This document shows positions 12,307 through 53,622 of a stretch of 57,439 bases of DNA, in pieces. The notes beneath the pieces are model-generated. The model searched no databases, was not told the DNA's origin, and was given only the letters and a program-made list of their open reading frames with translations. Origin of the DNA: a virus (lineage: Duplodnaviria > Caudoviricetes). The number at the start of each line of letters is the position of its first letter. Positions within the stretch are counted from its first letter, which is position 1. The stretch covers positions 1 to 57,439 of the IMG/VR virus record IMGVR_UViG_3300046737_000215; one strand, given 5' to 3'. The translations under genes and the position numbers were made by a program.

Positions 12307-12335
12307 AGCTTATCGCGACGGGTAGGGCGGCGGCC
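12307..12335 (-). promoter_or_regulatory. GGCC-class late promoter (leaderless)
   Basis: GGCCGC-17-TAAGCT-6nt-ATG. Confidence 0.7.
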
Positions 12336-12351
12336 TCGGCGAAAATAATCC

Positions 12352-12450
12352 TTGACGACGAGCCGGGTAGGCGCTAGGTTAGCTCATCTGGTCGTGATGG
12401 GCCGGGTCAATCGCCCCGGTCGGCAATGGTGCTGACCGGGGTTTTCTATT
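12352..12450 (+). ncRNA. Candidate ~60-nt small RNA with its own promoter and terminator
   Basis: TTGACG-17-TAGGTT (12352-12380), then a 12-bp hairpin at 12414-12441 and TTTTCTATTT. Confidence 0.5.
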
Positions 12451-13921
12451 TCCGGCCGCCCTTCCGCCACTGGGCTTTCGCCGCGGCGATTTCGTCCGCT
12501 TCGCGGTCGGCATCGGTCTTGACCACGGCGGGCTTGGCGAGGAAGGCGCGGTGTTCGCGCCACGCATACAGCGTCGCGTCCGAGCAGTGGTTCGGATACG
12601 CAGGGTGGGCCTTGGTCTTGGCTTCGTCCGCCCACGGGAGCGCGTTCCACTCCTCCACTACCGGCGCAGCGGAAGGCACGAAGGCTTTGACCCGCCCCAA
12701 CCGTAGATCCGAGTTGAACATGCCGATGGCCTCGGACCGGTTCATCTTCTTAGCCGGAATGGCGGCCCCGCCGGCCATCTTGCCATAGCGCTGCTGGAAC
12801 TCGGCGAATACGAGCTTGCCCTGGCCGCCGACGTCGATAACCGTCCTAGAGGCACGGTACTTGTCGCGGAACTCCTTGAGCTTGAGCGCCTGCTCGTCGG
12901 CTCGGAGACCGGCCTGAGTGAAGGCGTCCAGTACGTAGACGTCGGTCGAGCCCGGCGGCGAACCCAGCGCCACCACGGCGCAAGCGTCAGTAAACCCGAC
13001 GTCGAGGGCGCACGTGACCAACCACGACTCCCTAATCCACTGGTCGAGCGGGATGTTGGCCGGGGCGTCCGGGAGGTCCCGAGCGGTGTTGCGTGTGTTG
13101 TTGGCGGCGTATACCAGCACGGATTCGTCCTGAACCCACTCGCCCAGGTACTCGCGCCGGTAGGAGGGGTCCTCTTCCGAGATGTTCTCTTCCTCTCGGA
13201 TTTTGCGCAGGATGTCCTCGATACTCTTGCACTTCCGGTTGTTCGCCAGCAACAACGGGTTGTCCTTCAAGGTCCACCCGAAGCACTTCCAGCCGGGCTT
13301 CAGTCCCGAGGACACGGAATACCAGTACCCGCGCCGCGAGTAGCCCGGCGTTCCCGCCAAGACGATGCGCCCACCGACGTCGATGCAACCCGGCGAAATG
13401 CAATCCACGACGAGGCGTTCTAGAAGCATCTCGTAGGTCGCGCTCTCGTCGCACACAGCCAGCCGCCACTTCGACCCCCGGACCTTCTCGGCGGCGTTCT
13501 GGTCGTCCACGCCGAGCAGGATGAAGCATGCCCCATCCGGAGTAGTTATCTGACCGATATGGGCGGACATTGTCCAACCAAGGCCGTACTCGTGGTTGAT
13601 CTTGTCCAGAATGGGCCAGATGATCTGGCGAGCGCGGGCTAGCGTCCGGGCCGCAAATAGCGAAGTCTCGTTATGTCCCGACTCCAGGAGCGAGATGGCG
13701 AGCATGCGCCCGGCCAGCTCCGTCTTGCCTGCGCGCCGCGAGCAGCACACCGCGATGCGGTCAGACTCGCAATCCAGCACGTCCAACTGGAGCTGGAACA
13801 AGTCCGCACGCAATTGCCGGATGACGTCCGCCTTGAACTCGGGGGTCTCCCGGCGCGTGGCCAACTCTTCTTGTGCCCTACGGGCTAGCTCGCGCTTAGC
13901 GTCAAGTGCCGTAAAGGCCAT
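12446..13921 (-). CDS. terL: Terminase large subunit
   Basis: Walker A SRRAGKT, Walker B AVCDES, coupling motif GTP, YRREYLGEW, nuclease ALDVG and NHCSDATLY. Confidence 0.93.
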   Translation of the reverse strand: MAFTALDAKRELARRAQEELATRRETPEFKADVIRQLRADLFQLQLDVLDCESDRIAVCCSRRAGKTELAGRMLAISLLESGHNETSLFAARTLARARQIIWPILDKINHEYGLGWTMSAHIGQITTPDGACFILLGVDDQNAAEKVRGSKWRLAVCDESATYEMLLERLVVDCISPGCIDVGGRIVLAGTPGYSRRGYWYSVSSGLKPGWKCFGWTLKDNPLLLANNRKCKSIEDILRKIREEENISEEDPSYRREYLGEWVQDESVLVYAANNTRNTARDLPDAPANIPLDQWIRESWLVTCALDVGFTDACAVVALGSPPGSTDVYVLDAFTQAGLRADEQALKLKEFRDKYRASRTVIDVGGQGKLVFAEFQQRYGKMAGGAAIPAKKMNRSEAIGMFNSDLRLGRVKAFVPSAAPVVEEWNALPWADEAKTKAHPAYPNHCSDATLYAWREHRAFLAKPAVVKTDADREADEIAAAKAQWRKGGRK

Positions 13922-13926
13922 GCAGA

Positions 13927-13955
13927 ATAATAACCTTGACGTTCACCGTACGGCC
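13927..13955 (-). promoter_or_regulatory. GGCC-class late promoter (leaderless)
   Basis: GGCCGT-17-TATTAT-5nt-ATG. Confidence 0.7.
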
Positions 13956-13956
13956 G

Positions 13957-16900: not shown

Positions 16901-17574
16901 ACGAGAGCCCCGGTGGCGCGCGCGGCGGCGGTCTTAGCGATAGACGCCTTGACGGCCTCCTCGCCTAGCATCTTGGTGGCGACCTTTGCGCCGTACTTCT
17001 CGAAGAGCGCGACCGGCGAGAGGGCTAGCGCTTTGGCGCCGAGCCCGGCGGCCGTACCCGCTCCGAGTGTCGCGATCGTGCCGATGCCCTGCCCGATGAT
17101 GTCGCCGGCTACGCCGAGCTTCTCCTGCCGGTCGCGCCGGTCGGCCTCAGCCGCCGCGAAGTCCTGGCCGAAGGTGGCCTCGGGGGCAAGCGGGGCGTCG
17201 AGCCCAGGGGCTGCCGCCACCCCCAGGTCGCCGCCCGCGGGGGCCAGTTGCCGGACGCCTGCCGACGCAACCGAGCCCGCCAACCCGCCGATGCCCCCTA
17301 GGGCGCCGCGGTCAACTGCTTCGCCAAACGCCAGCCCGCGCTCTGCCACGCCCGCCAAGCCGCCCGCGAACGTCGGGTTGAACTCGCCGCCCTCGGCGAA
17401 CCGGGTGTCCTCGTAGCCCTGGCCGAGGTAGTCTATGTGCTCGGACTCCGGGACTTCTACGGTCTGGCCGTCCTTGACCATCTTCACGGTCGGCTCGGCG
17501 GCCGGCGGGGGCGCCGAAGCGGCTCGGCGGTCAGAAACGGACTTCAGTACGGCGAGCTCTTCGGGTGTCGGCAT
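13957..17574 (-). CDS. Large internal virion/ejection protein with an embedded GNAT-like domain
   Basis: 1205 aa, Ala/Gly-rich helical with hydrophobic Gly-rich segments; internal HIQVPPSKGRQGIGSKLY. Confidence 0.7.
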   Translation of the reverse strand: MPTPEELAVLKSVSDRRAASAPPPAAEPTVKMVKDGQTVEVPESEHIDYLGQGYEDTRFAEGGEFNPTFAGGLAGVAERGLAFGEAVDRGALGGIGGLAGSVASAGVRQLAPAGGDLGVAAAPGLDAPLAPEATFGQDFAAAEADRRDRQEKLGVAGDIIGQGIGTIATLGAGTAAGLGAKALALSPVALFEKYGAKVATKMLGEEAVKASIAKTAAARATGALVENLGQGALSAATDNVDTALKDPIEAAKNIAFGTAVSGGVGAVLGGGLGLAEGAIRATGNALRPALDAAVAPKPLVPAVRDILPEQAVEANATRELFSAKLPDEKRTWAGTRLAETRAMGSEDNVKAEVGRALVRGIDEKEALAIEAHDALGIAQKRRVNEVALQQGFADNIAGVDPDDLVRQQVAQDRAGLAAQELAQYDSAVADATARRQAAVDAEAAARKALDNAEAGRIAPTVVAPAVNAADLGEIVPNAKFSRDMPDFRADTFDLGDSRIQVNSNELPGYASVAHIQVPPSKGRQGIGSKLYAKADEFARSKGLKLASDSLDKQTPESAGWWKKQVAAGRAELDPTVNRYVLNRPLTESFEKAAPAAAGKPKKLPKSEMRLYKEAFQAAREDLKKATKEFDRVSGDVGSRRAAADALAKEAASLPAARPMTRLEADSRDLFSGMSAAAREFLPTVAGPDRDVVENFMKRVAAHRTAVIDAYRAGDYGTAHNLIDQGLKGAVGDLVNGAKSSEVQDFAMNLYRAPQGFLENAQVWGDDIAGRNVLANRSWSDAIHAGKNSGYRSLHTNSGVAGRGGFGERQTGNSGPIAGFLNNIGKFEGETTEVGTRNALRADTLDYTNRQAAWGDESTAHIPAKMAKIQTHLEDAMDHAALESRLAAQGRQRIQNGALLATVGAAASGVGLATGNPILAAAGVPFISARWLLNTLGQYKGDVAQTIAKGVSGLLSGTGKAIAPVAKGGARLLAKQAGSAARERELSKPGNSRAETIARSNAILDQRSPEFVEAAIEAEKMNVLSPGLGDAALQHRLETAQYLVNKLPKPPSSAVFSPPPRLTSAAATSLDRTILAVNGPRKTFERIVTGAATAEDLDMCRTLYPQQYKQLTDTIMAEVQKNPQRVKSNSLRMYLSRVTGQPLTPALMRLADSQKRAQAATQGAEDAGAPEGQGANGSDGVTARAPIQFDGNPDALMARSDSIMAR

Positions 17575-17613
17575 GTGCTTATATTACTCTACCAGCTCCA
17601 GCTTCGACCCCGT
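17562..17613. repeat. 52-bp direct repeat, copy 1
   Basis: Identical to 18107-18158. Confidence 0.97.
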
Positions 17614-18106: not shown

Positions 18107-18158
18107 CGGGTGTCGGCATGTGCTTATATTACTCTACCAGCTCCAGCTTCGACCCCGT
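18107..18158. repeat. 52-bp direct repeat, copy 2
   Basis: Identical to 17562-17613. Confidence 0.97.
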
Positions 18159-20491: not shown

Positions 20492-20528
20492 TCCAAGAGG
20501 ATATCGCACTTGGGGCCAGAGCGGGCGG

Positions 20529-21884: not shown

Positions 21885-21923
21885 GCCCCTAGTCTAGCTC
21901 GTTCGGGCGGCCCCTAGCCCCGG

Positions 21924-26153: not shown

Positions 26154-26195
26154 ATGTTACGTCACGGGCCGTCCGGGCGGCCGGGGCGCTATTCT
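26154..26195. promoter_or_regulatory. Overlapping divergent GGCC-class promoters
   Basis: Minus: GGCCGC(26182-77)-17-TAACAT; plus: GGCCGT(26167-72)-17-TATTCT. Confidence 0.7.
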
Positions 26196-26240
26196 TTACC
26201 TAATCGCCCACGAGGGTGGGCCCTAACGTAAGGTTATTCT

Positions 26241-27731: not shown

Positions 27732-27762
27732 AACAAAACCCGCCTGCGTTAGCAAGCGGGTT
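27732..27762 (-). terminator. Intrinsic terminator after the capsid gene, overlapping a TTGCTA-17-TACGTT promoter for the HNH gene
   Basis: CCCGCTTGC-taac-GCAGGCGGG-TTTTGTT on the minus strand. Confidence 0.75.
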
Positions 27763-27791
27763 CAGTCGAGTTAAGCTAACTGCGCGTTATC

Positions 27792-29021
27792 TTAGAGAGA
27801 ACGGGTGCTGAGCTTCAAATGTCCGAGCTGGGCAACGCGCTCCGAGTAGCAGTTTCCGAGGGTCAGGATCGTGAACGCCAGGAGACCGGTCGTGGGCGAG
27901 TAGGTGAAACGGTCACCTGCAGGCTTGAACAGGTCCGCCATGGGGCCAGCGGTTCCGAGCGTGAACGCGTCGGCGGGGACGAGGTACGCGTTGCCGATTG
28001 GGCAGTGGCGATCCTCGGCGAGCGTGTATCCGAGCACGGTCTTGGTCTTGATACCAACGTTGTACTTGGAGGGCATCTCGCCGTCCACAACGCGGATACC
28101 TTCGATCGAAGACTCGATCTCGGCCACGTCGAGGGGGTTCATGAAGATCGGCGCCTTAGCGTCGAAATTGTTACCCAAAGCGAGCTTGAACTTCGCGAAG
28201 CCACGGATGAAGCCCTCGCGGACGCCATAGGACGAGACGTCCACGTACGTACCGGAGATGCGGCCCGGGGCAACCGTCTGGTCGACTCCGAGGAAGGTCG
28301 TCGGGACAGCAGGCGCCCAACCGTTGAGGCCATCGAGGTACGCGTTCAGCGTGTCCTGACGGAGCAAGCCGTCAAGGTTCGTGATGCCCGCGATGTTCGA
28401 CCACGCGGCGTCAGCCGTGATGGTGCCCGCGATCGGGTCCACCTTGGTGATCGTGACGAAGTCGCCCGAGTCACGGAGCGCGAACGCTGCCGCGGGGTCG
28501 CCGGCCACAACGCGCATTCCTGGCTCGAAAAGCGTCACTGCTTCCGGGGTCAGGTTGCCCGCTGCGTCGGTCAGCGTCGCGACGGTCGTCGAGAACGTGG
28601 CGAAAGCGCGAACGCCGTTGTTCGAGCGGTAAAGAGCTTCGTTGAGCTCCTGGCCGAACGCCTCGGTCGCACCGTCGATGTCGTTCGCAACGGCGTCGAT
28701 CAGCTGGCTCTCGTCCGTGCCGTACTGTGCGTTCTTGACGACGTCGTCGCTAAGCTCGCCGAAGTACCGAAGCGTGCGCTGCGGAACAACGTAACGCACA
28801 CCCTTGTTGCCCACGCGGTTGGCGTATGCGCCAGCTGCCGTGGTTCCGATGCCCTGGCCGTTGCTCAGGGGCGTCGAGATATAGACGCCGTTCTGCGAGG
28901 AGAACGTCGACTCGTGCTTCACATGCTTGAGGAGCGCGTTACCGGAGGTAAGTGCGTCAACCGACACACCGTTCCTGTAAAGGCGCTTTGCGGTCCATTC
29001 TACGTCAGCTTGCGCGGTCAT
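27792..29021 (-). CDS. Major capsid protein
   Basis: 409 aa after portal and scaffold; strong codon bias, own promoter and terminator; IFMNP..and EDRHCP..AYL segments typical of an HK97 fold. Confidence 0.82.
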   Translation of the reverse strand: MTAQADVEWTAKRLYRNGVSVDALTSGNALLKHVKHESTFSSQNGVYISTPLSNGQGIGTTAAGAYANRVGNKGVRYVVPQRTLRYFGELSDDVVKNAQYGTDESQLIDAVANDIDGATEAFGQELNEALYRSNNGVRAFATFSTTVATLTDAAGNLTPEAVTLFEPGMRVVAGDPAAAFALRDSGDFVTITKVDPIAGTITADAAWSNIAGITNLDGLLRQDTLNAYLDGLNGWAPAVPTTFLGVDQTVAPGRISGTYVDVSSYGVREGFIRGFAKFKLALGNNFDAKAPIFMNPLDVAEIESSIEGIRVVDGEMPSKYNVGIKTKTVLGYTLAEDRHCPIGNAYLVPADAFTLGTAGPMADLFKPAGDRFTYSPTTGLLAFTILTLGNCYSERVAQLGHLKLSTRSL

Positions 29022-29184: not shown

Positions 29185-29213
29185 ACGATAACTCTTGCGT
29201 TCTGGGGGCGGCC
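29185..29213 (-). promoter_or_regulatory. GGCC-class late promoter for the capsid gene (leadered)
   Basis: GGCCGC-17-TATCGT immediately after a hairpin-plus-T-tract terminator (about 29215-29253). Confidence 0.7.
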
Positions 29214-29316
29214 CAAATAAAATCGGCCGGCTAGGCGCTACCCCGGCCGGCCGTACGCCGTGCTCTCTTCTGGTCCTGCTCAGGCATCCAGCCCGTTCGG
29301 CGGTCTTCTCCTACTA

Positions 29317-30405
29317 TCAGTCGTCGTCCGAGTCGGCGGCCTTGCGACGGCGAGCCTTCATCTCGGCCGCGAGCTCTGCCTTGACGTCTTCGCGGGTCTT
29401 CTTCGTGGTCCGAGCAGGCGGGTCGCGGGTGAGATCATCGAGTCCGCGGATTTCGACCTCTTCGTCGTCACCCTTCGACTTCTTCGCCTTGGGGGCATCT
29501 TCCTCGAACATCTTCTTGAAGACGTCCTTGAGGGCCGGGTTCTTCTTAATTGCAGCACGCATGGCTTTGTCGGAAGTGATGAGCTTCTCGGCGTTGTTCG
29601 CGAGGTTCTCTTCGAGGCGCTGCATAATCGGCATGACGTCTGTCACACCCTTCTCGTTCGCCTGGGTGAGGATTTCCTGAGTCGCCCACGGGACCGATGC
29701 CAGGAAAGGGAAGTCGTCCGAGTTCGCATCGAGGAACGCCGAGACCTTCTTGGTGTCAGCGGCCATGCGGGCTTCGGACTCGGCCTTCAGGGACTTCGCC
29801 TGCTCGGCGGCTTCGCGGTCGGACTTGTCCTTCTTGAGCTCCGCGATTTGGTCGAGGATCTCTTGGGGGACGGAAGGTTTGGCGCCGGGCGGCGCGTACT
29901 TCTTAGCGTTGATGCCCTTGACGAGGTCTTCGAAGGAGACGCCCAGGTGCTCCAGGATCGTCAGCGGGTTGGCCTTGCCGGCCTCGATGAGCTTGACGAG
30001 CTTGGCTGTCTCCTTGGTTGCTTTGTCGGCGGTCTGGATGGCTTCGTTCTTCTCGCGAAGGAGCTTCGCCAGGCGGAGGTCGTAGTCCGCGTCCGACTCG
30101 GACTTCCGCTGGTCGGGCACGTCAACGCCTGCGCGTTCGAGCTTCTCTTCCTTCGCTTCGATCTTCTTCTCGATGGCGGTTTCGGCCTTGGCTTCTACCT
30201 TCGGTTCCACCTTCGCCTTGGTCGCCTTCGGCGCCTCGTCGGCTTCGTCGTCCGATGCGTCCGCGGCAGCCGCCTTAGACCGTCGAGCGGCGAGCTCCGC
30301 GACGAGCTTGGCTCGGGCGTCCTTCGCTTTGACGGGGGTGTTCGCCGAGGGTACGTCTTGCTCGGGGGTGGTTACGTTGCTTGGCTCTTTTTGGATTTCG
30401 TCCAT
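29317..30405 (-). CDS. Capsid scaffolding protein
   Basis: Highly charged coiled coil between portal and capsid genes. Confidence 0.75.
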   Translation of the reverse strand: MDEIQKEPSNVTTPEQDVPSANTPVKAKDARAKLVAELAARRSKAAAADASDDEADEAPKATKAKVEPKVEAKAETAIEKKIEAKEEKLERAGVDVPDQRKSESDADYDLRLAKLLREKNEAIQTADKATKETAKLVKLIEAGKANPLTILEHLGVSFEDLVKGINAKKYAPPGAKPSVPQEILDQIAELKKDKSDREAAEQAKSLKAESEARMAADTKKVSAFLDANSDDFPFLASVPWATQEILTQANEKGVTDVMPIMQRLEENLANNAEKLITSDKAMRAAIKKNPALKDVFKKMFEEDAPKAKKSKGDDEEVEIRGLDDLTRDPPARTTKKTREDVKAELAAEMKARRRKAADSDDD

Positions 30406-30412: not shown

Positions 30413-30441
30413 AGAGTAACCTAGACGTTTGACGGGGGGCC
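30413..30441 (-). promoter_or_regulatory. GGCC-class late promoter (leaderless)
   Basis: GGCCCC-17-TACTCT-7nt-ATG. Confidence 0.6.
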
Positions 30442-32355: not shown

Positions 32356-32384
32356 AGTCTAAAGGGCGGGTGGCTTTATCGGCC
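32356..32384 (-). promoter_or_regulatory. GGCC-class late promoter (leaderless)
   Basis: GGCCGA-17-TAGACT-6nt-ATG. Confidence 0.7.
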
Positions 32385-32674: not shown

Positions 32675-32683
32675 TCCCTCAAG

Positions 32684-33349
32684 TTACTCGCTGTCCGACC
32701 CGTCGTCAACTATTTCCGCTTCGGCGGGCTCGCCGGCGGTCAACTGGGGCACCGAGTCGACCTGTTGCTTAGCCAGCGCGAGCAGCGTAGCGGTAGGCAG
32801 CGAGGCGATGTCGACCTTGTTGCCCGCGGACGCCTCGACAGATATCTTGCTGGCAAGGTGCCAACGTCGTGCGGCGAACCGCTCAAGCATCCAGGCGGCG
32901 GCCTTCCAGTCGTGAGATGCCGCACTACCTATGCAGGCGATCAAGCTCGCTTCGTACTGGGCCTTCGCCTCGTGGACGCGGTCGAGCCAGTAGATATACG
33001 GCGACTCGCCTTTGTCGAAGCCGCCGATTAGGCCCTTCTCCTTGTGCGCGCGCGCGGTCTTCGACCAGCTCTTCCACAGCTCGCCTTTGATGCCGATGGA
33101 GGCCGCGGCGACGTGCACGGGCACGCCGACCTTGACGAGCTCCGCCATCGCGGCGGCGCGCTTCGGGGTGATGGAGTTGCAGTCTGGGTCGGGGTCCGAA
33201 AAGTCCAGAACGATGCCCTCGTCCGAGTCCAAGCGGTCGTCTTCCGAGTCGACGTGGTCGTACGGAGCCGCAGAGCCCCCACGTCGGTGCTTTCCGTAGC
33301 CGGGCTTAGGCGATCCTTGCCTAGGCGTTTTCGGTGCTCCCCAGCCCAT
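32684..33349 (-). CDS. terS: Terminase small subunit-like HTH protein
   Basis: HTH (VHVAAASIGI..LWKSW) and DWKAAAWMLER; upstream of the portal. Confidence 0.7.
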   Translation of the reverse strand: MGWGAPKTPRQGSPKPGYGKHRRGGSAAPYDHVDSEDDRLDSDEGIVLDFSDPDPDCNSITPKRAAAMAELVKVGVPVHVAAASIGIKGELWKSWSKTARAHKEKGLIGGFDKGESPYIYWLDRVHEAKAQYEASLIACIGSAASHDWKAAAWMLERFAARRWHLASKISVEASAGNKVDIASLPTATLLALAKQQVDSVPQLTAGEPAEAEIVDDGSDSE

Positions 33350-33782: not shown

Positions 33783-34060
33783 TTGGGGCTCACCTTTTCC
33801 TTCAGTTTCGCCGGTTTTGGTGTCGCCGGGACGACAACTACGGGCAAGGGTTCGGAGGCAGGCGCAGCGAAAACCGCGCCGAAGCAGTTAGAAAGCGCGA
33901 AACGGGATTCGGCCCCGTCAGCCGCGGTGAGAATGACCGTCTGGCCGTCCACTTCGATGCTGAGCGTCGGCGACGCGTCGAAGCGCGCGAAGAGCAACCC
34001 GTTGCGCGGGTCAATGGCGTCTCGGCCAGGCCGTAGCCGCACGTAAGAGCACTTCTTCAT
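33779..34060 (-). CDS. Hypothetical protein
   Basis: ATGA overlaps on both sides. Confidence 0.6.
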   Translation of the reverse strand: MKKCSYVRLRPGRDAIDPRNGLLFARFDASPTLSIEVDGQTVILTAADGAESRFALSNCFGAVFAAPASEPLPVVVVPATPKPAKLKEKVSPK

Positions 34061-34458
34061 AGGTCCCCCGGCACATGGAATCCATAACGGACCGCGGTCT
34101 CTTTCCAACGCTCGGACGGGAAGAAGGACTCCAGCGACGCCTCGGGGCTAATCCGGTCGTAGGTCGCGACGAGGAGCTCCTTGGCGATGCCCTGGCGGCG
34201 TTCGCCATCGCGGACATACACATGCACCAAGACGATCCCGTCCTCTTCCAAGAACATGGAGAAGCCGAGGGCGCGGTGGCCGCGTCGGGCGACGAGGACT
34301 TGGGCCTTGGAGAGGATGTCGTTAACGAGAGGGTTGACGATCGCGTAGGCTTCGAAGTTCGGGCGGTCTGAGAGGAGCGTCGATTTGACGTGCTCCTTGG
34401 CCGCTTTGGCTACGAAGGACGTTTCGTCCAACTTCATGGGGGAAATGGCTTGGCTCAC
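34057..34458 (-). CDS. GNAT acetyltransferase
   Basis: HVYVRDGERRQGIAKELL acetyl-CoA binding motif. Confidence 0.8.
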   Translation of the reverse strand: MSQAISPMKLDETSFVAKAAKEHVKSTLLSDRPNFEAYAIVNPLVNDILSKAQVLVARRGHRALGFSMFLEEDGIVLVHVYVRDGERRQGIAKELLVATYDRISPEASLESFFPSERWKETAVRYGFHVPGDL

Positions 34459-34464: not shown

Positions 34465-34493
34465 ACGGTAACCCAGACCTTTAGCGGGCGGCC
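34465..34493 (-). promoter_or_regulatory. GGCC-class late promoter (leaderless)
   Basis: GGCCGC-17-TACCGT-6nt-GTG. Confidence 0.7.
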
Positions 34494-35151: not shown

Positions 35152-35183
35152 CTCGTTAGAGTACCGCCCGGAGGGGCGGCAGG

Positions 35184-35486
35184 TCAAGTCCGAAAGGCCC
35201 CTTGGTGGTGAGCGTCGATGATGGCTGCGCGATGCCGCTTAAACGCGAGCTCCAACCAATATGGGATCGTGTATGCCGGATCTTTAGAGACGACCCAGAA
35301 GAGTTGCTGGGCGGCCTGCTCCGGGTCGCCGTGGTCGGCGAGGGCGGAGAGCCACAGCAACCACAGACACGAGTCGATGGCGGTAGTGTAGTTGGCACGG
35401 ATGGCGCCGCCCAGGGGCAGCGACTGGGCGCGGAGCATTCCCTTGACGCTCATCGGTTTTGGAAACTGGCTTAGCTCGTTAGACAT
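35184..35486 (-). CDS. Hypothetical protein
   Basis: 100-aa ORF in operon context. Confidence 0.6.
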   Translation of the reverse strand: MSNELSQFPKPMSVKGMLRAQSLPLGGAIRANYTTAIDSCLWLLWLSALADHGDPEQAAQQLFWVVSKDPAYTIPYWLELAFKRHRAAIIDAHHQGAFRT

Positions 35487-35490
35487 CTGG

Positions 35491-35790
35491 TTACTCGCTC
35501 TCGCTCTCGGTCTCTGAAAAGTTCTCGTCTACGGCGTAGACCACATCCGCGCCGCCTAGGCGCTCGAAGCTCGGTCGGCCGCGGGCCAGATGGTCCAGCG
35601 CGAATCCGCTTTGCGCGAGCCAGCGGCGCACGGTCAGCGGGGCGACCGAGTGCTTGCGGGCTAGGTGGGTGACGATGAGCGCGGTTGGCCCGCGGGCAGC
35701 GACGATTTCGGCGGCCTCGGCGAGGACAGCTCGTCGGGCAATGGACAGCGCCTGCTTGGTGCGGCGCTTCAACTCGTTTAGGTTTTGCAT
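35491..35790 (-). CDS. TetR-like HTH DNA-binding protein
   Basis: LAEAAEIVAARGPTALIVTHLARKHSVAPLTVRRW; preceded by GGCCGC-17-TAAGAT-6nt-ATG (35797-35825). Confidence 0.6.
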   Translation of the reverse strand: MQNLNELKRRTKQALSIARRAVLAEAAEIVAARGPTALIVTHLARKHSVAPLTVRRWLAQSGFALDHLARGRPSFERLGGADVVYAVDENFSETESESE

Positions 35791-35810
35791 GGCCTTATCT
35801 TACCGTGCCT

Positions 35811-36044
35811 TTATCGGGTGCGGCCGGTCGATGGGTCGGCCCCGTCCGGCTCTTCCTCTTCGTCGCCGCCGTCACCGAAGCCGATAGGCCCCGACGAGCG
35901 GGCGTCCGTTTCTAGGGGCGCCGGGGACTCGACGTGGTACTCGTTGCCGTTGTACTTGACTGACACGTGGGCGTACCCCGCCGCCCGAAGGGCAAGGACG
36001 TGCTGGCGGAAGGACAGTAGGTCGCGGTCGAACTTGGTTGCCAT
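35811..36044 (-). CDS. Hypothetical protein
   Basis: GGAG SD, 77 aa. Confidence 0.6.
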   Translation of the reverse strand: MATKFDRDLLSFRQHVLALRAAGYAHVSVKYNGNEYHVESPAPLETDARSSGPIGFGDGGDEEEEPDGADPSTGRTR

Positions 36045-36045
36045 T

Positions 36046-36489
36046 TTACTTCTCCTCCGGGAGTCCGTTAGCCCAGTCGCGGGCGATCCTCTGAAGGCCG
36101 ACGAGCTGCTTGGCGCGCTCGGCGGCGTAGGCGGCGCAGGCGGCGTCGTAGGCGGCGTAGGCGGCGTCGGCGTAGGCGGCGTCGGCGTAGGCGGCGGCGG
36201 CGTCGTCGGCGGCGTAGGCGGCGTAGGCGGCGTCGGCGGCGGCGTAGGCGGCGTAGGCGGCGTCGGCGGCGGCGTCGGCGGCGGCGCGGCCTTTTGCGCG
36301 CTTGGCGCATACGCGGACGAATCGGGCTAGCCGGAACTCTCGCCCCATCAGCCAAATCAGCCAGTCGACTCGGGGGCAGCTACCGACGATTTCGGCGGCG
36401 TCTTCGGAGAGGTGTTGCAGTACGTAGGTCGCGGCGCTGAGGCACGCACGGTGCTTGTCCATCGTCAGTAGCAGTTCGGTTTTCGTCAT
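36046..36489 (-). CDS. Protein with an AAYAA/AAD low-complexity repeat
   Basis: GGAG SD; 36121-36290 is an array of GCC/TAC/GAC codons. Confidence 0.75.
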   Translation of the reverse strand: MTKTELLLTMDKHRACLSAATYVLQHLSEDAAEIVGSCPRVDWLIWLMGREFRLARFVRVCAKRAKGRAAADAAADAAYAAYAAADAAYAAYAADDAAAAYADAAYADAAYAAYDAACAAYAAERAKQLVGLQRIARDWANGLPEEK

Positions 36490-36641
36490 TTGCTTAGCTC
36501 CTGGTCTAAGGTAGCGGGTTGGTCGGACAGTAGCTATGGATTTCTTTAGAAGCGGTATCGATTATCGAAAAGCTGAATGACCGCGGGCGTGTTCCGGTTG
36601 TGTCTAGTAGAGTAGCGACCTAGCCCTCTTAGGTCAGTCGC

Positions 36642-37322
36642 CTAATCTCTCGGCCCGAAGCCCCCGCGATCGTATGGATCGGCGGGCATGCGGAAGAGCT
36701 GGTCCAGCCCGCGGCCGTGCCAGTCCTCTATGTGCCGAAGCCCGCGGTAGCTAGGGACGTCCAGGACCTCCGCCCACTCGGGCCATTCGCGGTCCGGGAT
36801 GTAGACAATCGCCTTGTATAGGAGCTGCCATCGCACTTGGCGTCGCTGCTCTCCGGTGAGGCCGTGGTCGAGCTTAGGCGGCGGCTCCAGAATCCAACGC
36901 AACACTGCGTGAAACGTAGTCGCGTATTCGTCCGAGATGGCTTCCAACATATTCGCCTCCTCTTGGGTTAGGCGCACTTGCAAGCGAACCGAGCGGGCCG
37001 CGTTCGTTGCTTTGACGGCTCGGGCGTGGGCGGCTTTGCGGACCCGGTACTCAGGGTCGTACTGGGCGGCGCCGACCCGGGCCCGTCGACGTTGGAGCTG
37101 GATGATCTCCTGCTCGACGCCGTCAGGCGTAGCGTTCTCGGGGACGACCATCCAAACCTTCAGAAGCTCTGATACGGACGCGCCGGTTTTGGCGGCGAGC
37201 CGGAGCAGCCGAGAGTGCTCGTCAGGCGTCATGTTGACTTCCTGGTCGAGGGCGGGGCCGTCGTCCGAGATGTCGGCGGAGTCCATGATGGGGTCGAGGA
37301 AGGTGTCTAGATAGTTTGCCAT
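36642..37322 (-). CDS. Tandem ribbon-helix-helix (CopG/MobC-like) DNA-binding protein
   Basis: EVNMTPDEHSRLLRLAAKTGASVSELL and VRLTQEEANMLEAIS..FHAVLR; TTGACT-18-TATTTT-7nt-ATG. Confidence 0.6.
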   Translation of the reverse strand: MANYLDTFLDPIMDSADISDDGPALDQEVNMTPDEHSRLLRLAAKTGASVSELLKVWMVVPENATPDGVEQEIIQLQRRRARVGAAQYDPEYRVRKAAHARAVKATNAARSVRLQVRLTQEEANMLEAISDEYATTFHAVLRWILEPPPKLDHGLTGEQRRQVRWQLLYKAIVYIPDREWPEWAEVLDVPSYRGLRHIEDWHGRGLDQLFRMPADPYDRGGFGPRD

Positions 37323-38798
37323 GACCGAAAAAATAACCTTACTCGTGCTCGGGAGTCAACCGAATAAAAGTCATCCGAGCCGAAGGCGGGGTCGTCGAGT
37401 CGAGTCGAGGTCTATCCCGATTACAGCGTTTCCGTAGAATTGAACAAAGACCCCCTAGAGACGATTCTCCGACGACCGACGAGACCCGATAGTCGGCTCT
37501 CCGCGATAGTCGCTCAGTCCGTGTCCATCCGTGATGCGCCTTACACGAAGTGAGCTAAGTATGCGTCAGGGTGACGGAACTAGTGCCAATAGAGATATCT
37601 CAGACACTCTGGCACTAGTTCCGTCACCCTGACGCTTTAAGAACGATACATCACAAATCCCAAAACCTCGTCGCGAAGCGCTTCTCGACGACCGTCGACC
37701 GTCGACTAGCCGACCCCCGCTCGCTGCGCTCGCTGGGGTCGGACTCGGATAAAGCAACTCACCCGACCCGGATGGTCGACCCCCGCCTAAGCGTCGACCC
37801 CTAGGTAAAAGTAACCTGTCGCCTAGCCGACCCAACCAAAAAATTGGCCCAGCCGATCTGCGTGCCGATCTTCTCGGGCGCGCCGGATGGGCACTTAGCC
37901 GCTTAGCCGGGCTCGGGCCCCGATGGCTAGTCGCTTAGTCGGCAGCCGCTTAGCCGGTAAAAGCAACTCACAAACACACCCAAGGCAAAATCTCCGACAC
38001 GCTCATAGCGGGGAAATCGGCGCACGCCGTAGGCGCCCAACCCCTCCCCCCTACATGTGGGCAACCGAAAGCTCAACGATTCCGTGCACTTGGCCGTCTG
38101 ACCAGCCAGGTTGCGCCCTCTAGCCCACTGAATCCGAGGCCCTTGCCTACCTGTAGCCCCCGCCTAGGCACCTAGCTGCCCCGCCTAGCCCCGAGGCCCC
38201 CGAGGGCTAGCTGCCTAGCTGCGGTGCCCGCTCCGGGCCGCCTAGGGGCCTCAGCGGCGCCGCCATGGCCTTCGGGGAGGCTCGGGGCCCGGGCGCCTAG
38301 CCGCTTAGTCGGCCTTCGGACCGAGGCAAGGTACTGGTTTCCGAGGTATCAATGCGACCTAGCGCACCGGAACGAGGGCAGGTCGATTTCTCAGCGAGGC
38401 GATGTCTGTGCGGGGGGCGCGGTAGTACCTGCCGTCTAAGCGCCCCATCGGCTCGGCAGCTGCCGTCTAAGCGCCCATCGGCTCGTGGCCTCGCCGCCCC
38501 GAAGCCCCGCCGCTCTGGTCGCCGCTAGCGGTCGGCTAAGCGGCTCGGCAGCCAGTCGCCTGGTCGACGTGCCGAACCGTCCCTCGCGGTCCCCGCATTG
38601 CTCTGGTTATCTTTTCCACAGACCCTTGAAAACAAGTGTTTCAATTTCCGTGCCCGCCGCAAAGCGCTTCTCAGGCACCTCGGAGAGCCCGACTTACGTT
38701 CAGCCATGGTCCCACGTTCTCCTGGGCTCCACATCGAGCTACCTCAGCCGACGCTTGTACGTAGTCCCACTGTAGGGCCTTTGTGGTACGTTCAGCCC
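37323..38798. other. Large non-coding region rich in hairpins and short repeats (origin or packaging-end candidate)
   Basis: No credible ORFs; repeated GCTTAG/CCTAG motifs, AAAGCAACTCAC twice, tandem 26-27 bp repeat at 38429-38485. Confidence 0.6.
37563..37635. repeat. Stem-loop element, copy 2 (26-bp perfect arms, 21-nt spacer)
   Basis: GCGTCAGGGTGACGGAACTAGTGCCA-N21-TGGCACTAGTTCCGTCACCCTGACGC. Confidence 0.95.
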
Positions 38799-39020
38799 AT
38801 GAACGAAAAAGACCCGTCAGACAGTTGGGGCGACGTCAAACCCCCGAAGCCGCGTAGGCCCCATCCGAACAGCAAGGTGCAACGCGACTTGCTCATCAAG
38901 CTTTACGCCGCCGCGCCGGTCAAAGCAGCATTCGATGCAGCGAGACTCCCGGGAGAGTCGCTGTCAGCGTGCGTGCGTAGGCTGGCGTGGACGGCATTGC
39001 AAGCACAGGTGAAGCCGTGA
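38799..39020 (+). CDS. Small RHH-like DNA-binding protein
   Basis: KAAFDAARLPGESLSACVRRL; TACGTT-6nt-ATG. Confidence 0.6.
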   Translation: MNEKDPSDSWGDVKPPKPRRPHPNSKVQRDLLIKLYAAAPVKAAFDAARLPGESLSACVRRLAWTALQAQVKP

Positions 39021-39337
39021 CCGAGTGTTGGTTCTGCAATGAGCACGCATCCGTCAAGCTGGCTAGTGGGCGCGTCGCTCTGCCTGCGTGCCGGTGCTGT
39101 CGTCAGCTGGCGGGTTGGGATGGCCGCGAGGGCTTCCAGAAGCCCAGGGAGCTTGCGGGAACGATACTGCGCGCATTCGATGTGCGCTATCGCAAACTGC
39201 TCGACATGCCGTTGTGGTCCGAAGATGAGCTAGACGAACTGGACTATCACTTGCGCACAAGCGTGGCCGCTACGGTGGCAGCAGCGCGCATAATCCACAT
39301 CCGAAGGGCAGCCATCATGCTGCGAGTGAACAGCTAA
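39017..39337 (+). CDS. Protein with an N-terminal zinc-finger-like motif
   Basis: CWFC..CRCC; GTGA coupling. Confidence 0.6.
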   Translation: MTECWFCNEHASVKLASGRVALPACRCCRQLAGWDGREGFQKPRELAGTILRAFDVRYRKLLDMPLWSEDELDELDYHLRTSVAATVAAARIIHIRRAAIMLRVNS

Positions 39338-39654
39338 TGGACTACCTATCGGTCACTCGGGCGCTAGCCGCCCACGATGATTGCCACGCCGCGGTGATGG
39401 CAGCATTCCGCCTAGCCGCTCGCAAGGGCAACCCGGCAACCCGATGGAACAGAGCCGACCGCGAGACGATGGCGCTAGCACTAACGGCCGCTGAGGATTG
39501 GTTGGACTCTCGCCGCGAGCCTACCGCCTCAGCAGCGTACCGTCGCGCGCGTAGGGCGCTAGAAGACTCGCTGAGCGTCGGAACCGGCAAGGGCGCGGCG
39601 CCGGATAGCTGGCCGCTCGTGCGGGCCGCGGTGCGTAGCCGACTGGCCGCCTAA
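39337..39654 (+). CDS. Hypothetical protein
   Basis: TAATG coupling; followed by hairpins at 39655-39765. Confidence 0.6.
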   Translation: MDYLSVTRALAAHDDCHAAVMAAFRLAARKGNPATRWNRADRETMALALTAAEDWLDSRREPTASAAYRRARRALEDSLSVGTGKGAAPDSWPLVRAAVRSRLAA

Positions 39655-39768
39655 ACGCCGAACGCCCCGCTGGATTGCCAGCGAGGCGTTTGGTAGGCGG
39701 AGCAGTTCCCCGCGGGTATCCTAGGTAGGATACCCGGCTTGCCGGCCTAAGCGGCCTAGCGGCTCGCC

Positions 39769-46008: not shown

Positions 46009-46061
46009 ATGGGCAGCGTACCGCCGAGGCGGGTCAGATGTCAAGCACGATACGATGCGGA

Positions 46062-48521: not shown

Positions 48522-48749
48522 TCATCGGCACGTTGTCACACACACTGACCCGGCGAGGGGCGGCGCGTTTTCCGAGTAGACGATGGGCGGATTGCACTTA
48601 GTCGAGCAGCTCTGGATCGTGACCTTCGTGCCGATGGGCAGCTTAGGCGACGAAGCGCAGCCCGAGAAGAGCGCGACGCCCGCGATGGCCGCTAGCGTGA
48701 TTGTGACGCCCAATGAAAGTCCCACTACCATATCTCTTAGCTCGTTCAT
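48522..48749 (-). CDS. Small lipoprotein
   Basis: Hydrophobic signal ending LFSGC; AAGGAG SD. Confidence 0.6.
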   Translation of the reverse strand: MNELRDMVVGLSLGVTITLAAIAGVALFSGCASSPKLPIGTKVTIQSCSTKCNPPIVYSENAPPLAGSVCVTTCR

Positions 48750-48847
48750 CTTTGACTCCTTGGTTCCTAACCTAGCACGTCGCCACTACCATATCTCTTA
48801 GCTCGTTCATCTTTGACTCCTTGGTTCCTAACCTAGCACGTCGCCAC
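48722..48847. repeat. Perfect tandem duplication, 61-bp period
   Basis: 48722-48786 equals 48783-48847, with CCAC microhomology at the boundaries. Confidence 0.95.
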
Positions 48848-48979
48848 AGCGATAATCAAACCCCAAATCCCGATCGACAGGATTATCCCCCAGCGGAGAC
48901 CCCGCGCGATATTCCCAGGCGCCACGGCGTCCCGGGCCTCTTCGTCGATAGTGTCCCAGCATTCGCCTCTAATAATCAT
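48833..48979 (-). CDS. 48-aa membrane peptide
   Basis: MIIRGECW...WGIILSIGIWGLIIAVATC; ATGA coupling. Confidence 0.5.
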   Translation of the reverse strand: MIIRGECWDTIDEEARDAVAPGNIARGLRWGIILSIGIWGLIIAVATC

Positions 48980-50983: not shown

Positions 50984-51335
50984 TGTACAACCTCGCTACG
51001 GCGCAACACGCCTCAAAAGAACCTCGGGCCTTGAGCTCGTGATTTACGTACAGAAGGAGCAGGCCGGTGTACTTCCGGCGTCCGGACACCTCTCTCGAAT
51101 AGCACGCGCCCGTCAAGTCTTCTTCGCCTACGATGTGAATATTCGGCATGTGAAATCACCAAACGCTTATTTCGAGGCCCAACACGCACAAATACCCGAA
51201 GTCCGGGATGAACGAGAACGCCCAAGGTGACTTGTCTTCCCAATCGACCCATTCAGAGCGGGGCTTCCAGGTGACTAGGAGACTGCGGTTGGGTTTGTTG
51301 GAGCGATGTTCGAATAGGACTTTCATCTGGGTAGA

Positions 51336-53567
51336 CTACTTGGGTTTAGCCTGAGAGGCAAGCAAGAAGTCCTCGTACACGGCGAGCGTGCCGTCCGGCC
51401 AATAGACGGCGTCGCCGCCCGACTTCGACCATCTTCTAGTGGCGGCGGGCTTCGCCTGGATGAGGACATCCGTGCAGATTTCCTGTGCTCCGCCTACCCA
51501 AAGCTCTTCCAACCGCTTAGCTGCCGCGACGTATGTTTCTTCCGCAGATTCGACGAGGGCTTGGTCGTGGACGAACGCGATCGGCCGCGAGCCAAACAGC
51601 GCGGAAGCCGGCACGGCGTAACACTCAACCGTCACGCGCCACGTGGACTCCTTCGCGCAGTCGGACCCAAGCCCCTGGAACCATGAGTTATTCCCGTCCG
51701 TGTAGCGGCACCCGCCTCGGACGCGCAGAGAGTACGGGTGGGTCATTCGGATACCCGACTCACTCTTGGAGGTCTTGGCGCCTACCTTATTGGGCGGGCA
51801 TACCCCGGAGTTCATAATCTCCAAGTACCGCTCGCGCTGACGGTACTCCTCCTTGACCAAGCCCTTGACGACTACGAACTTGCCCTTGGCGTCCTTGCCC
51901 TTCCAGCCCGCGATGGCCTTAGCGACTTCCTCCGTGACCGTCACGCCGTAGTTGTCCTGGCAGTACCCGATGAGACGAGCCCAGCCCATTCCTCCGGGCA
52001 AACCGTACGCAGGGCCTTTGGCTAAGTTGCGCATCTCCTTGAAACGCTTCGGGTCGGTCGCCTTCATGGCGTAGCCCTCGGCCGCCGAAATCCCGTAGAT
52101 TCTCGCCCCTAGCTCCACGAGCGCCGACCGCTTCGGGTCGTTGAGGATTACCGCTAGGTCCGACTCGCCGAACAGCCACATCTCGACCTGGGCAAGCATG
52201 CACTGCTCTAGCCCGGTGAAGTCGATGTCGAGGATGACGTTGCCCGGGCGGGCCACCATTATCTCGCGCACGCCGGGGACTTCCACCTCGCCGTCGTACT
52301 TGCAGCTCTCGCAGCCCGCTCCGGCGCAACTCGGGCACGGCCCCGTCACGGCCTTCGGCGGGTTCTGGACCTGTACGCCGTACGCCATTGGGGCCTGCCC
52401 CGGCTTGGGGTCCTTGCCTTGGGAGCAGCTCGTGCGCCCCGTGGCCTTCAGCGTAGTGTAGGACGGCTGGAGCACCGGCTTCGACCACCTCTTGACCTTG
52501 GACAGCAGCGTGCCGGCTTGCCCCGAGTCCGTGTACGCGATGAGTGCCGGGGACTTAGTCGCGCGGCACGCCGCGTCGTCGAGCTTGATGTTGCCGGCCG
52601 CATCGGGGTCCTTCTCGATCATCTTCTCGGTCGGCTTGCCCCTCGGCACGGGCAGCGAGTGCTCGGTGCACCACTGAACCATATACGCCTCGGCGGCCTT
52701 CTTGTTCGCCGAGCCGTCGGGGTTGCGCAGCGGCTTAGTCTCGGTTACCTCGTAAGCGACCTTCTGCTTGGCTACCGAGCGGGTCTTGGTCTTAGAGTAC
52801 GTGACATAGGTGCTTTGGCACAACTCCGCCGCCGCCGCGAGCTCGGCAGCGGTCTTCTCGTAGAGCTTAGCCGCTTGGACAGGGTCCGACCGGAAACCGT
52901 AGCATTGCATCAGGTACAGCGCGATGGACGCTCGTACTTGGCGGTGCTGGTCCTTGAGCCACGTCGGGTGCGCGGACTGGGCCAGGTAGAGCTCGTCGGT
53001 GGCGCGCACGTCCTCGGTGACGTACGCCACGGCGTCAGCCGGCCACTCCGACACGTGGGTGCCGTAGAGCGTCCCGTAGCGCTGGCGCCAAGCGTCCGCC
53101 TTATTGGGCTGAGTCGGGGTGCTCCAGCGGGCGCAGCACGCCCCGAGGTTGGTGCGGAAGCCCGATTCTTCGGACATATCGAAGCGCGCCAGCGCGATGT
53201 GGTATAGCGTCTCGCGGAGCTCCGTACAGACGATTCGGTCTTGGTGGGCGGCGCCCAGGAGCATTTGCGCCCACTCGACTGGGCGACCCAGCTGTGCCCC
53301 GTAGGACATCAGCCCGGCCACGTCGTATGCCACTTTATGGCCCACGAAGAACAGCGACTCGTCCCGGAAGAGCGACTCGACGACTCGCGGGAACGCGGGG
53401 TCGCCAGCGCCGACTAGGTGGACCTTGCCGCCGTCGATGGCGAAGGCCAGCACCACCGGAGGAGGTGCCTGGACGCACGGCGCGATCAGCATCGATTCGG
53501 TGTCGAACGTCACGCGGATATGCGGCTTAGGCTTCGAGCGGGTCAGCGAGAAATCGAATGGTTGCAT
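51336..53567 (-). CDS. polA: Family A DNA polymerase with a 3'-5' exonuclease domain
   Basis: Exo I FDTE, Exo II HKVAYD, Exo III YVTED; TGRTS, motif A DFTGLE, motif B RNLAKGPAYG, FQG, motif C VHDQ. Confidence 0.92.
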   Translation of the reverse strand: MQPFDFSLTRSKPKPHIRVTFDTESMLIAPCVQAPPPVVLAFAIDGGKVHLVGAGDPAFPRVVESLFRDESLFFVGHKVAYDVAGLMSYGAQLGRPVEWAQMLLGAAHQDRIVCTELRETLYHIALARFDMSEESGFRTNLGACCARWSTPTQPNKADAWRQRYGTLYGTHVSEWPADAVAYVTEDVRATDELYLAQSAHPTWLKDQHRQVRASIALYLMQCYGFRSDPVQAAKLYEKTAAELAAAAELCQSTYVTYSKTKTRSVAKQKVAYEVTETKPLRNPDGSANKKAAEAYMVQWCTEHSLPVPRGKPTEKMIEKDPDAAGNIKLDDAACRATKSPALIAYTDSGQAGTLLSKVKRWSKPVLQPSYTTLKATGRTSCSQGKDPKPGQAPMAYGVQVQNPPKAVTGPCPSCAGAGCESCKYDGEVEVPGVREIMVARPGNVILDIDFTGLEQCMLAQVEMWLFGESDLAVILNDPKRSALVELGARIYGISAAEGYAMKATDPKRFKEMRNLAKGPAYGLPGGMGWARLIGYCQDNYGVTVTEEVAKAIAGWKGKDAKGKFVVVKGLVKEEYRQRERYLEIMNSGVCPPNKVGAKTSKSESGIRMTHPYSLRVRGGCRYTDGNNSWFQGLGSDCAKESTWRVTVECYAVPASALFGSRPIAFVHDQALVESAEETYVAAAKRLEELWVGGAQEICTDVLIQAKPAATRRWSKSGGDAVYWPDGTLAVYEDFLLASQAKPK

Positions 53568-53593
53568 ATATTCTCCAACGATAACGCACGGTC

Positions 53594-53622
53594 GGCCGTC
53601 CGTCCAGCCTAATCGCTAACCT
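53594..53622 (+). promoter_or_regulatory. GGCC-class promoter (leaderless), overlapping a divergent TGGACG-17-TATCGT promoter for the polymerase
   Basis: GGCCGT-17-TAACCT-6nt-GTG. Confidence 0.7.

Follow-up and report, generated by a model that had tools for sequence, protein, structure and literature searches.

Promoter classes that keep a host -10 element and replace the -35 element are how phage T4 and some bacteria reprogram RNA polymerase. The middle promoters of T4, as described in PMC6024815, are served by the host RNA polymerase, carry a sigma70-type -10 with a phage-specific box in place of the -35 element, and constitute a temporal class. Mycobacterial PafBC is described as an activator lodged between sigma region 4 and the promoter DNA, at promoters that possess a canonical TANNNT, no -35 element and an element at fixed spacing (PMC8635444). 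For Deinococcus host genes, it was shown experimentally that TANNNT adjoining the open reading frame (ORF) is a leaderless promoter by itself, which a -35 element at 17 bp modulates or enhances (PMC12340547); leaderless genes have also been described in Actinobacteria. Podophages of the phiEco32/7-11/SU10 type turn to another class of promoter for their middle and late genes (PMC8948821), and Mu Mor/C and staphylococcal RinA are reported as small phage DNA-binding proteins acting at or near the -35 of late promoters (PMC4461284, PMC3152322). Here we describe a GGCC box at the -35 position of predicted promoters in the IMG/VR record IMGVR_UViG_3300046737_000215, a 57,439-bp viral sequence of soil-metagenome origin (59-69% GC), the whole of which is called the window below.

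The likeness to T4 AsiA/MotA concerns the mechanism only: a normal -10 is kept and a specific box stands in for the -35. The T4 MotA box is centred around -30. In contrast, the box of the window has another sequence and an exact -35 register (17-bp spacer), its genes are predicted to be leaderless, the host would be a high-GC bacterium of the soil, and the phage has no homologue of AsiA (PF09010; no six-frame match at E up to 10) or MotA (PF09114; no match at E up to 10). A hybrid promoter architecture in a setting rich in leaderless genes is shared with PafBC, whose element is tGTCgg-N10-TANNNT and whose reader is a host WYL protein; here the arrangement is GGCCGY-N17-TANNNT, phage-borne, and WYL (PF13280) finds no match in the phage genome. 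The Deinococcus-Thermus “-10 adjacent to ORF” promoters likewise place TANNNT a few bp upstream of the start and use a 17-bp -35 to modulate strength (PMC12340547), but they belong to host genes mostly lacking a -35, whereas the phage has two boxes at the -35 position, one of them non-canonical. A distant structural kinship with phiEco32/7-11/SU10 is seen through SU10_adaptor and SU10_MCP; those phages encode a recognisable sigma factor, whereas none was detected here and the -10 is constant between classes. Late promoters without a good -35 are also the feature of Mor/C and RinA. In contrast to these, the window has no match to the Mor domain (PF08765), many dispersed single-gene promoters, and no dyad-symmetric site. 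The cis-element itself is real, and its particulars are new, while -35 substitution on the host holoenzyme is known from T4 MotA/AsiA and PafBC.

The GGCC box and the start-proximal -10 element

TANNNT-N(d)-[AG]TG arrangements were counted in the window without the use of gene calls. A peak was found at d = 6, with 27 sites, 16 of them opening an ORF of 60 codons or more; d = 7 gave 17 sites, 11 with such an ORF, and the remaining spacings gave 8-22 sites, of which 1-8 had one. A G two bases upstream of TANNNT (extended -10, G at -14) is present in 19 of the 27 sites (P = 4e-5), and the GC content at third codon positions of the ORFs behind start-proximal TANNNT boxes is of coding type. This is the geometry of a -10 of the sigma70 family, extended by the G, and it is predicted to drive leaderless mRNAs because the box lies 6-7 nt before the start codon; transcription would start at or beside that codon. 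About 25 gene starts have the leaderless arrangement, which leaves no room for a Shine-Dalgarno sequence, and about a third of the genes are laid out for such expression. An earlier note on this DNA had reported the -10 boxes, which are borne out, and had overlooked the start codons abutting them, on which the statistical case is based.

The starts of the portal, 238-aa tail-like and GNAT genes are supported by homologue N-termini, since the alignments reach residues 1-5 of these proteins. The deposited portal call has 602 aa, its homologues have 635-640 aa and are aligned from residue 1, and correction of the gene start restores the 33 residues by which the deposited call is short. In this genome, the starts of leaderless genes seem to be misplaced by gene callers built to look for a Shine-Dalgarno sequence.

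Ten sites with GGCCnn exactly 17 bp before TANNNT, two on the plus and eight on the minus strand, were found at the very coordinates of the earlier note. They are given below as box, spacer, -10, gap and start codon.

12307..12335, minus: GGCCGC-17-TAAGCT-6-ATG 12300; ORF 11896-12300, function not recognised
13927..13955, minus: GGCCGT-17-TATTAT-5-ATG 13921; terL 12446-13921
26154..26182, minus: GGCCGC-17-TAACAT-6-ATG 26147; 238-aa tail-like protein, homologue alignments begin at this ATG
26167..26195, plus: GGCCGT-17-TATTCT; no adjacent start, leader of ~39 nt to the gene at 26241
29185..29213, minus: GGCCGC-17-TATCGT; major capsid gene 27792-29021, leader of ~160 nt
30413..30441, minus: GGCCCC-17-TACTCT-7-ATG 30405; putative scaffold 29317-30405
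32356..32384, minus: GGCCGA-17-TAGACT-6-ATG 32349; portal/connector 30442-32349, architecture kept in a close relative (L027)
34465..34493, minus: GGCCGC-17-TACCGT-6-GTG 34458; GNAT-like 34057-34458, homologue alignments from residues 4-5
35797..35825, minus: GGCCGC-17-TAAGAT-6-ATG 35790; 99-aa ORF, function not recognised
53594..53622, plus: GGCCGT-17-TAACCT-6-GTG 53629; 129-aa ORF, function not recognised, the sole site outside the leftward block

The plus-strand site at 26167 is the least certain of the ten; its GGCC region overlaps that of its minus-strand partner at 26182. The scaffold box at 30441 begins directly after the portal stop codon.

At spacers of 14, 15, 16, 17, 18, 19 and 20 bp, GGCCnn-TANNNT occurs 7, 4, 3, 10, 4, 2 and 5 times, respectively. 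The ten sites of the bare pattern compare with 4.79 ± 2.01 expected, and 2 of 100 dinucleotide shuffles reach ten. The pattern is highly significant once the start codon is included in the test: eight of the ten sites have the ATG or GTG of a coding-type ORF 5-7 nt downstream. In a set of 36 TANNNT-(5-7)-start sites whose ORF has 40 codons or more, assembled with no gene-call filter, GGCC stands at offset -23 (the 17-bp spacer) in eight, where 0.28 are expected (binomial P = 3.7e-10), never at -22 or -24, and 0-2 times at every other offset from -40 to -10. Enrichment over background at the -35 position had been named beforehand as a test, and this is its outcome. Among the 442 other TANNNT sites, GGCC at -23 occurs in two (Fisher P = 1.9e-8), which are the leader-bearing sites 29213 and 26167. 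A blind scan of the 256 4-mers at all offsets, over 25 start-proximal -10 boxes chosen without reference to the -35 region, returned GGCC at -23 as its top hit (8/25 sites), with TTGA or TTGC at -23/-24 in another eight.

The consensus can be extended to GGCCGYCC, with a 17-bp spacer in 10/10 sites. In register, the GGCC class matches canonical TTGACA at 0/6 positions; the -35 hexamers are bimodal, with no continuum. The box has no second conserved half-site, repeat or dyad partner. An AACGTC-N-AGGT spacer motif is common to several of the sites, and palindromic GGCC sites number 452 genome-wide. On this sequence evidence, the GGCC box is a genuine promoter element locked to one position, and its sites are concentrated before genes for packaging, head and tail.

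The boxes GGTCGA, GCCCGC, GGCTAG, GCCCAC and CGCCAC precede other leaderless genes of the leftward block. The earlier note had placed the first three before ejection genes; the variants are present as described, but no family among the matches listed supports the label.

17581..17609, minus: variant GGTCGA-17-TAATAT-6-ATG 17574; 1205-aa ORF
20498..20526, minus: variant GCCCGC-17-TATCCT-6-ATG 20491
21891..21919, minus: variant GGCTAG-17-TAGACT-6-ATG 21884; 451-aa ORF

The octamer GGCCGCCC is also found at the variant promoter 21891..21919, but with a 10-bp spacer. An exact 52-nt direct repeat (17562-17613 and 18107-18158) duplicates the GGTCGA-17-TAATAT promoter and the first codons of the 1205-aa ORF. 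Source-assembly contigs break at both copies, and the intervening 545 bp may represent a variant of assembly or of recombination.

Two terminator-like hairpins flank the capsid gene and its GGCC box.

29214..29253, minus: terminator-like hairpin, -23.6 kcal/mol, U-rich tail; directly upstream of the capsid GGCC box
27736..27763, minus: terminator-like hairpin and T-run; directly after the capsid gene

The capsid site is the only one preceded by a hairpin, and GGCC as a terminator arm was rejected. At both leader-bearing GGCC promoters, an AATCG-hairpin-(C)ACGAG motif is located 5-6 nt past the -10 (leaders 29184-29022, minus, and 26196-26240, plus); it is also observed in the capsid leader of the relative L027 (3799-3960). 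This motif may be a conserved 5'-UTR element that controls capsid expression.

The TTG class and the genes behind the two classes

Nine promoters carry TTGACN or TTGCNN at 17-18 bp, and most of them are leaderless. Those at 1096, 8212, 37359 and 46044 had already been reported and were found again.

1497..1525, minus: TTGACT-17-TAGTCT-7-ATG 1489
1068..1096, minus: TTGACG-17-TACCTT; leader and Shine-Dalgarno-like sequence before ATG 1022
4804..4833, plus: TTGCTC-18-TATTCT-6-ATG 4840
8212..8240, plus: TTGACG-17-TAAAAA-7-ATG 8248; -10 without the final T
32681..32709, minus: TTGACG-17-TAACTT-6-ATG 32674; inside the “late” block, 40-codon ORF
35158..35187, minus: TTGACC-18-TACTCT-6-ATG 35151; inside the “late” block
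37330..37359, minus: TTGACT-18-TATTTT-7-ATG 37322; heads the leftward block, best sigma70-type match of the region
46015..46044, minus: TTGACA-18-TACGCT-6-ATG 46008; RNA-ligase-like gene
51333..51361, minus: TTGCCT-17-TAGTCT-6-ATG 51326

A further TTGCTA match at 27755 falls in the loop of the post-capsid terminator and is probably coincidental.

Recognised packaging or virion genes stand behind five of the ten GGCC promoters (terL, portal, putative scaffold, capsid and the tail-like gene) and behind none of the nine TTG promoters (one-sided P = 0.022). The leftward block at 8.5-37.3 kb holds 9/10 GGCC sites and 3/9 TTG sites (P = 0.017). The link to late genes that had been proposed thus stands as an association with packaging and virion genes, but not as a clean split between the classes. 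The timing of the GGCC class would probably be middle or late.

Because the two classes have their -10, their G at -14 and their spacing to the start codon in common, one sigma region 2/3 probably reads both; only the -35 contact probably differs between them.

Conservation, the reader of the box and rival explanations

The portal family was compared at 34-71% identity, over 18 viral-contig and 7 metagenome loci. Contigs from three soil runs were short pieces, none seen to span a promoter, and carry no weight for conservation. The sole close relative examined is L027 (66-68% portal identity, 4.1 kb). Its portal promoter, GGCCGA-17-TACCAT-6-ATG, is kept although letters of the spacer, -10 and discriminator differ, and its capsid promoter keeps GGCCGG-17-TATTCT with a similar leader after it. 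In this one relative, GGCC is found in 2/3 orthologous promoters and the geometry in 3/3. Over the family, a leaderless portal start occurs in 1/20 loci, that of L027. Summing the 18 loci gives weak maxima, at d = 6 (23 sites, the other distances having 4-18) and at spacer 17 (13 sites, the others having 4-10), and GGCC is present in 1/12 filtered start-proximal sites across eight of the 18 loci (in L012). Conservation in related genomes, which the earlier note had proposed to check, therefore holds in L027 and fails in more distant relatives, and the GGCC class looks lineage-specific.

The same motif was sought in host-type promoters. The best named relatives of the phage's serine recombinase are Actinomycetota, a weak host hint, since the gene is mobile and the alignment was built from the same matches. 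Five actinobacterial genomes (31.6 Mb) were picked on this kinship and may not be of the host's group; in them the GGCC architecture occurs 37 times vs 73 for the reversed control, TTGA 30 times vs 15 and CCGG 59 times vs 46. The density of the GGCC architecture is ~1.2 per Mb in these genomes vs ~139 per Mb in the phage. The motif is not enriched there, and the architecture is not a general promoter type in these five genomes.

Pfam and PHROG scans covered all 74 ORFs, plus 50 ORFs individually, and the best 25 of 33 Pfam and 25 of 64 PHROG families are listed. No sigma factor, RNA polymerase (RNAP) or annotated transcription factor is among the matches listed, and sigma regions 2 and 4 (Sigma70_r2/r4) give no six-frame match at E up to 10, in agreement with the earlier note, which had recognised no sigma or RNAP gene. 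The sole Sigma70_r4_2 match (E = 0.0048, below cutoff) is the helix-turn-helix of the serine recombinase. T7-type RNAP (PF00940) gave no match in a search whose control was silent in every genome, and none is among the Pfam/PHROG matches listed. The sequence DxDGD is an RNA polymerase motif; a crude screen found it in no large ORF.

The best candidate for a trans-acting factor is the following gene, a reasonable lead and nothing more.

36642-37322, minus: orphan of 226 aa, two ribbon-helix-helix-like segments

The second of these ribbon-helix-helix (RHH) segments was read by eye from the sequence. The nearest Atlas neighbours of the protein are RHH/CopG/NikA clusters, all under the naming bar, and a search among 5.8 billion proteins returned no homologue but itself. 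The genes at 35811-37322 have no counterpart in the relatives L009 or L010, while neighbouring genes have one. Of the three candidate regions put forward earlier, 35184-37322 thus retains some interest, its part 35811-37322 being lineage-specific and including the RHH-like orphan. The region 38799-39654 is doubtful, lying within a 2.4-kb stretch without coding periodicity, and the ORF at 8248 has no recognisable domain.

Several known promoter types were tried and rejected. For an ECF-type promoter, the CGTC-like motifs in the spacer are wrongly placed, at ~8 nt from GGCC. The sigma28-type sequence GCCGATAA is confined to 32384 and L027 and lacks a TAAA 15 nt before it, and the GG-N10-GC arrangement of sigma54 is absent. 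The TTGACN boxes, Shine-Dalgarno sites and -10 geometry are all bacterial, and an archaeal TATA/BRE promoter was rejected on this ground.

The explanation that we favour, and regard as an evenly balanced proposition, is that two -35 alternatives precede a common leaderless -10 and that the GGCC box is read by a trans-acting, probably phage-encoded factor. A common sigma70-family -10 (TANNNT, usually with G two bases upstream) would stand 6-7 nt before ATG or GTG, and the -35 position would hold either a host-type TTGACN/TTGCNN at 17-18 bp or GGCCGY(CC) at exactly 17 bp. At the GGCC promoters, a trans-acting protein would replace or bridge the contact between sigma region 4 and the -35, in a mode like that of a class II activator, sigma appropriation or sigma adaptation, and the GGCC genes would thereby gain their own, probably middle or late, timing. 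A trans-acting reader is the most likely because the box shares none of the six canonical -35 positions. The factor would probably be phage-encoded and of no recognised family, with 36642-37322, expressed from the strongest host-type promoter, as the best candidate. Remodelling of sigma region 4, which had been proposed before, is one of several possible mechanisms; no AsiA or MotA homologue was found in the searches given above. We infer the transcription start sites, the timing, and the existence and identity of the factor. A narrower proposal is clearly more tentative: that a hitherto undescribed family of small phage proteins, possibly that of 36642-37322, docks on GGCCGY at -35 and directs the principal-sigma holoenzyme of the host to about a dozen single-gene, leaderless virion-gene promoters.

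Several observations weigh against the favoured explanation. The bare 29-nt pattern, taken alone, is marginally enriched (~2x expectation). Two TTG promoters, 35187 and 32709, fall within the “late” block, and half the GGCC promoters stand before other genes, namely the GNAT gene, three ORFs without recognised function and the 53629 gene in the replication region. In L027, GTCCGC replaces GGCC at the scaffold promoter, where the spacer motif, the -10 and the 7-nt gap are the same. Portal starts of relatives at up to 52% identity are mostly Shine-Dalgarno-led or overlapping TGATG, and no leaderless gene directly after the portal was found in the more distant relatives, save an artefactual match in L017. 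No known reader family was found for the factor gene in the Pfam/PHROG matches listed or in dedicated domain searches. The NikA-like/RHH Pfam match of 36642-37322 is below the family cutoff (23.2 vs 27 bits), and its Atlas model is of low confidence (pLDDT 0.50). The negative result in the five actinobacterial genomes carries limited weight, because the host hint is weak and these may be the wrong organisms. The Deinococcus precedent, in which TANNNT adjoining the ORF suffices, suggests that an activator may be unneeded and that the box could be a repressor site or modulator.

If the reader is of host origin, a host alternative or second principal-like sigma, or a host activator at -35, would recognise GGCC and tie the virion genes to a host regulon. 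The lack of a sigma or known activator family in the phage, among the matches listed and in the domain searches, is consistent with this, as are PafBC, a host activator that defines hybrid promoters of canonical -10 and specific upstream element, and the lineage-specific distribution of the box, which resembles adaptation to a particular host when distant relatives are Shine-Dalgarno-led. We consider it unlikely, given that the box is not enriched in the five genomes (37 vs 73; possibly not of the host's group) and that the -10 is identical to that of the TTG class, unlike that of a divergent alternative sigma. A lytic-type phage, moreover, usually times its late genes by its own product. A little lower we rate direct use of the sites by the host principal sigma, as constitutive leaderless promoters at which the -10 and the G at -14 suffice and GGCC is tolerated or weakly favourable. 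The Deinococcus promoters, in which TANNNT adjoining the ORF suffices and a 17-bp -35 merely enhances (PMC12340547), point in this direction, as do the G at -14 in 19/27 sites and our own alignment, in which nGGCCG shifted by one base has the G and C of TTGACA. The single offset (8 sites vs 0-2 elsewhere), the strict 17-bp spacer in 10/10 sites and the bimodal hexamers argue against it, and tolerance cannot explain conservation, the L027 portal promoter keeping its box amid diverged neighbouring bases.

Less probable again is a repressor operator, with intrinsically active -10-only promoters held off early and later released. Such promoters are described as functional in leaderless-rich hosts, and the box sits where a bound protein would block RNA polymerase; a lone site of 6-8 bp without repeat or dyad partner is, however, short for a classical operator. 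RHH proteins are typically repressors, which speaks for the operator. Decidedly improbable, in our view, is a cryptic phage sigma-like factor or RNA polymerase beyond current domain models that reads the whole element. Divergent RNA polymerases are described in Thermus phage P23-45 (10.1101/2022.12.01.518664) and a sigma-displacing protein in mycobacteriophage D29, SU10/phiEco32-like phages sharing the capsid and adaptor families encode their own sigma (PMC8948821), and this genome has many orphan ORFs. Against such a factor stand the six-frame search for Sigma70_r2/r4, empty at E up to 10, the crude screen for DxDGD, and a similarity between sites far below that of single-subunit RNAP promoters. 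That the pattern is a functionless by-product of chance or composition in GC-rich intergenic DNA is hardly credible: the 452 palindromic sites show how common GGCC is, and the bare pattern reaches about twice expectation, but the enrichment at one offset (P = 3.7e-10), the Fisher test (P = 1.9e-8) and the conservation in two of the three L027 promoters are at odds with it.

The phage genome and what the promoters may mean

The first and last 39 nt of the record (1-39 and 57401-57439) are identical at 38/39 positions, and portal-bearing contigs of relatives measure 45-61 kb, both of which suggest a circular or terminally redundant genome that is probably complete at ~57.4 kb, despite the label “linear” and a CheckV completeness of 32%. 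The phage is probably an uncultured soil podophage whose capsid and adaptor are SU10-like and whose early module is of a T5-like A1/nucleotidase kind. Among the sequencing runs listed as containing it, none is of RNA. Besides the genes already given, the following were recognised.

32684-33349: terS
~40.6-41.1 kb: serine recombinase
51336-53567: DNA polymerase
54022-56530: T5-like early trio, side by side (A1-like, dATP/dGTP diphosphohydrolase-like, NT5C 5'-nucleotidase)

A helicase, a nuclease, two ligases, an SU10_adaptor Pfam match and several HNH endonucleases are also encoded. The capsid label at 27792-29021 comes from the ESM Atlas, with a feature score of 0.99 and TM values of 0.77-0.88 to clusters named “phage major capsid protein”, and SU10_MCP is present in 13-24% of the members of its nearest Atlas clusters. 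The A1-like “DNA transfer” protein matches phrog_1745 (E = 2e-128); a T5-like pre-early set in a podophage-like genome with an SU10-like capsid is an unusual combination of modules. The best identity of terL is ~23%, to T5-like phage terminases, and the homologue search with the DNA polymerase gave one weak match. Compared at the DNA level with deposited phages, the late region had no match, and relatives were found neither by a single-protein portal scan of viral contigs nor by an alignment scan of genome contigs. In the solved-structure search, the portal profile had no matches and the capsid just two at chance level (E = 0.37). The RNA-gene search found no tRNA and no Rfam family.

Several repeats and non-coding features were observed. 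The 2.4 kb at 37323-39700 lack codon-position GC periodicity and convincing ORFs and contain a 29-nt repeat at 37915 and 38285; this unusually long stretch of phage non-coding DNA, empty of Rfam matches, may represent an origin, regulatory DNA or genes for RNAs. A 49-nt element with a perfect 14-bp inverted repeat and a 21-nt loop occurs twice (8075-8123 and 37575-37623, 94% identical), once at either edge of the leftward block of virion genes. The element could act as a terminator at the boundary, in regulation or in recombination; the genome does encode a serine recombinase. At 48722-48843, a 61-nt unit is duplicated exactly in tandem. A GC-rich repeat of 9- or 12-nt period with 17 overlapping copies (36082-36324) lies inside the minus-strand ORF 36046-36489 and encodes a low-complexity Ala-rich segment, where the source run has 15- and 30-nt insertion variants. 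The adjacent tail-fibre-like genes 8589-10064 and 10107-11891 share segments of ~400 nt at 72-75% identity, an internal duplication, and the former has a SASA carbohydrate-esterase domain.

Earlier solutions to -35 substitution informed the biology of sigma region 4 and yielded orthogonal regulatory parts. The cis-element of this phage is unusually clean, with a strict 17-bp spacer, a single box and no known sigma, anti-sigma or activator family in the genome by the searches above. The element would be coupled to pervasive leaderless expression of virion genes, which is, to our knowledge, rarely documented in phages. If the narrower proposal of a small-protein family is true, a MotA/PafBC-like -35 substitution would have arisen independently in a soil phage lineage, and this would be the first late-gene programme made up almost wholly of leaderless transcripts. 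The factor, if found, would represent a new means of redirecting the principal-sigma holoenzyme in high-GC bacteria, and the promoter grammar may aid host guesses for uncultured phages.

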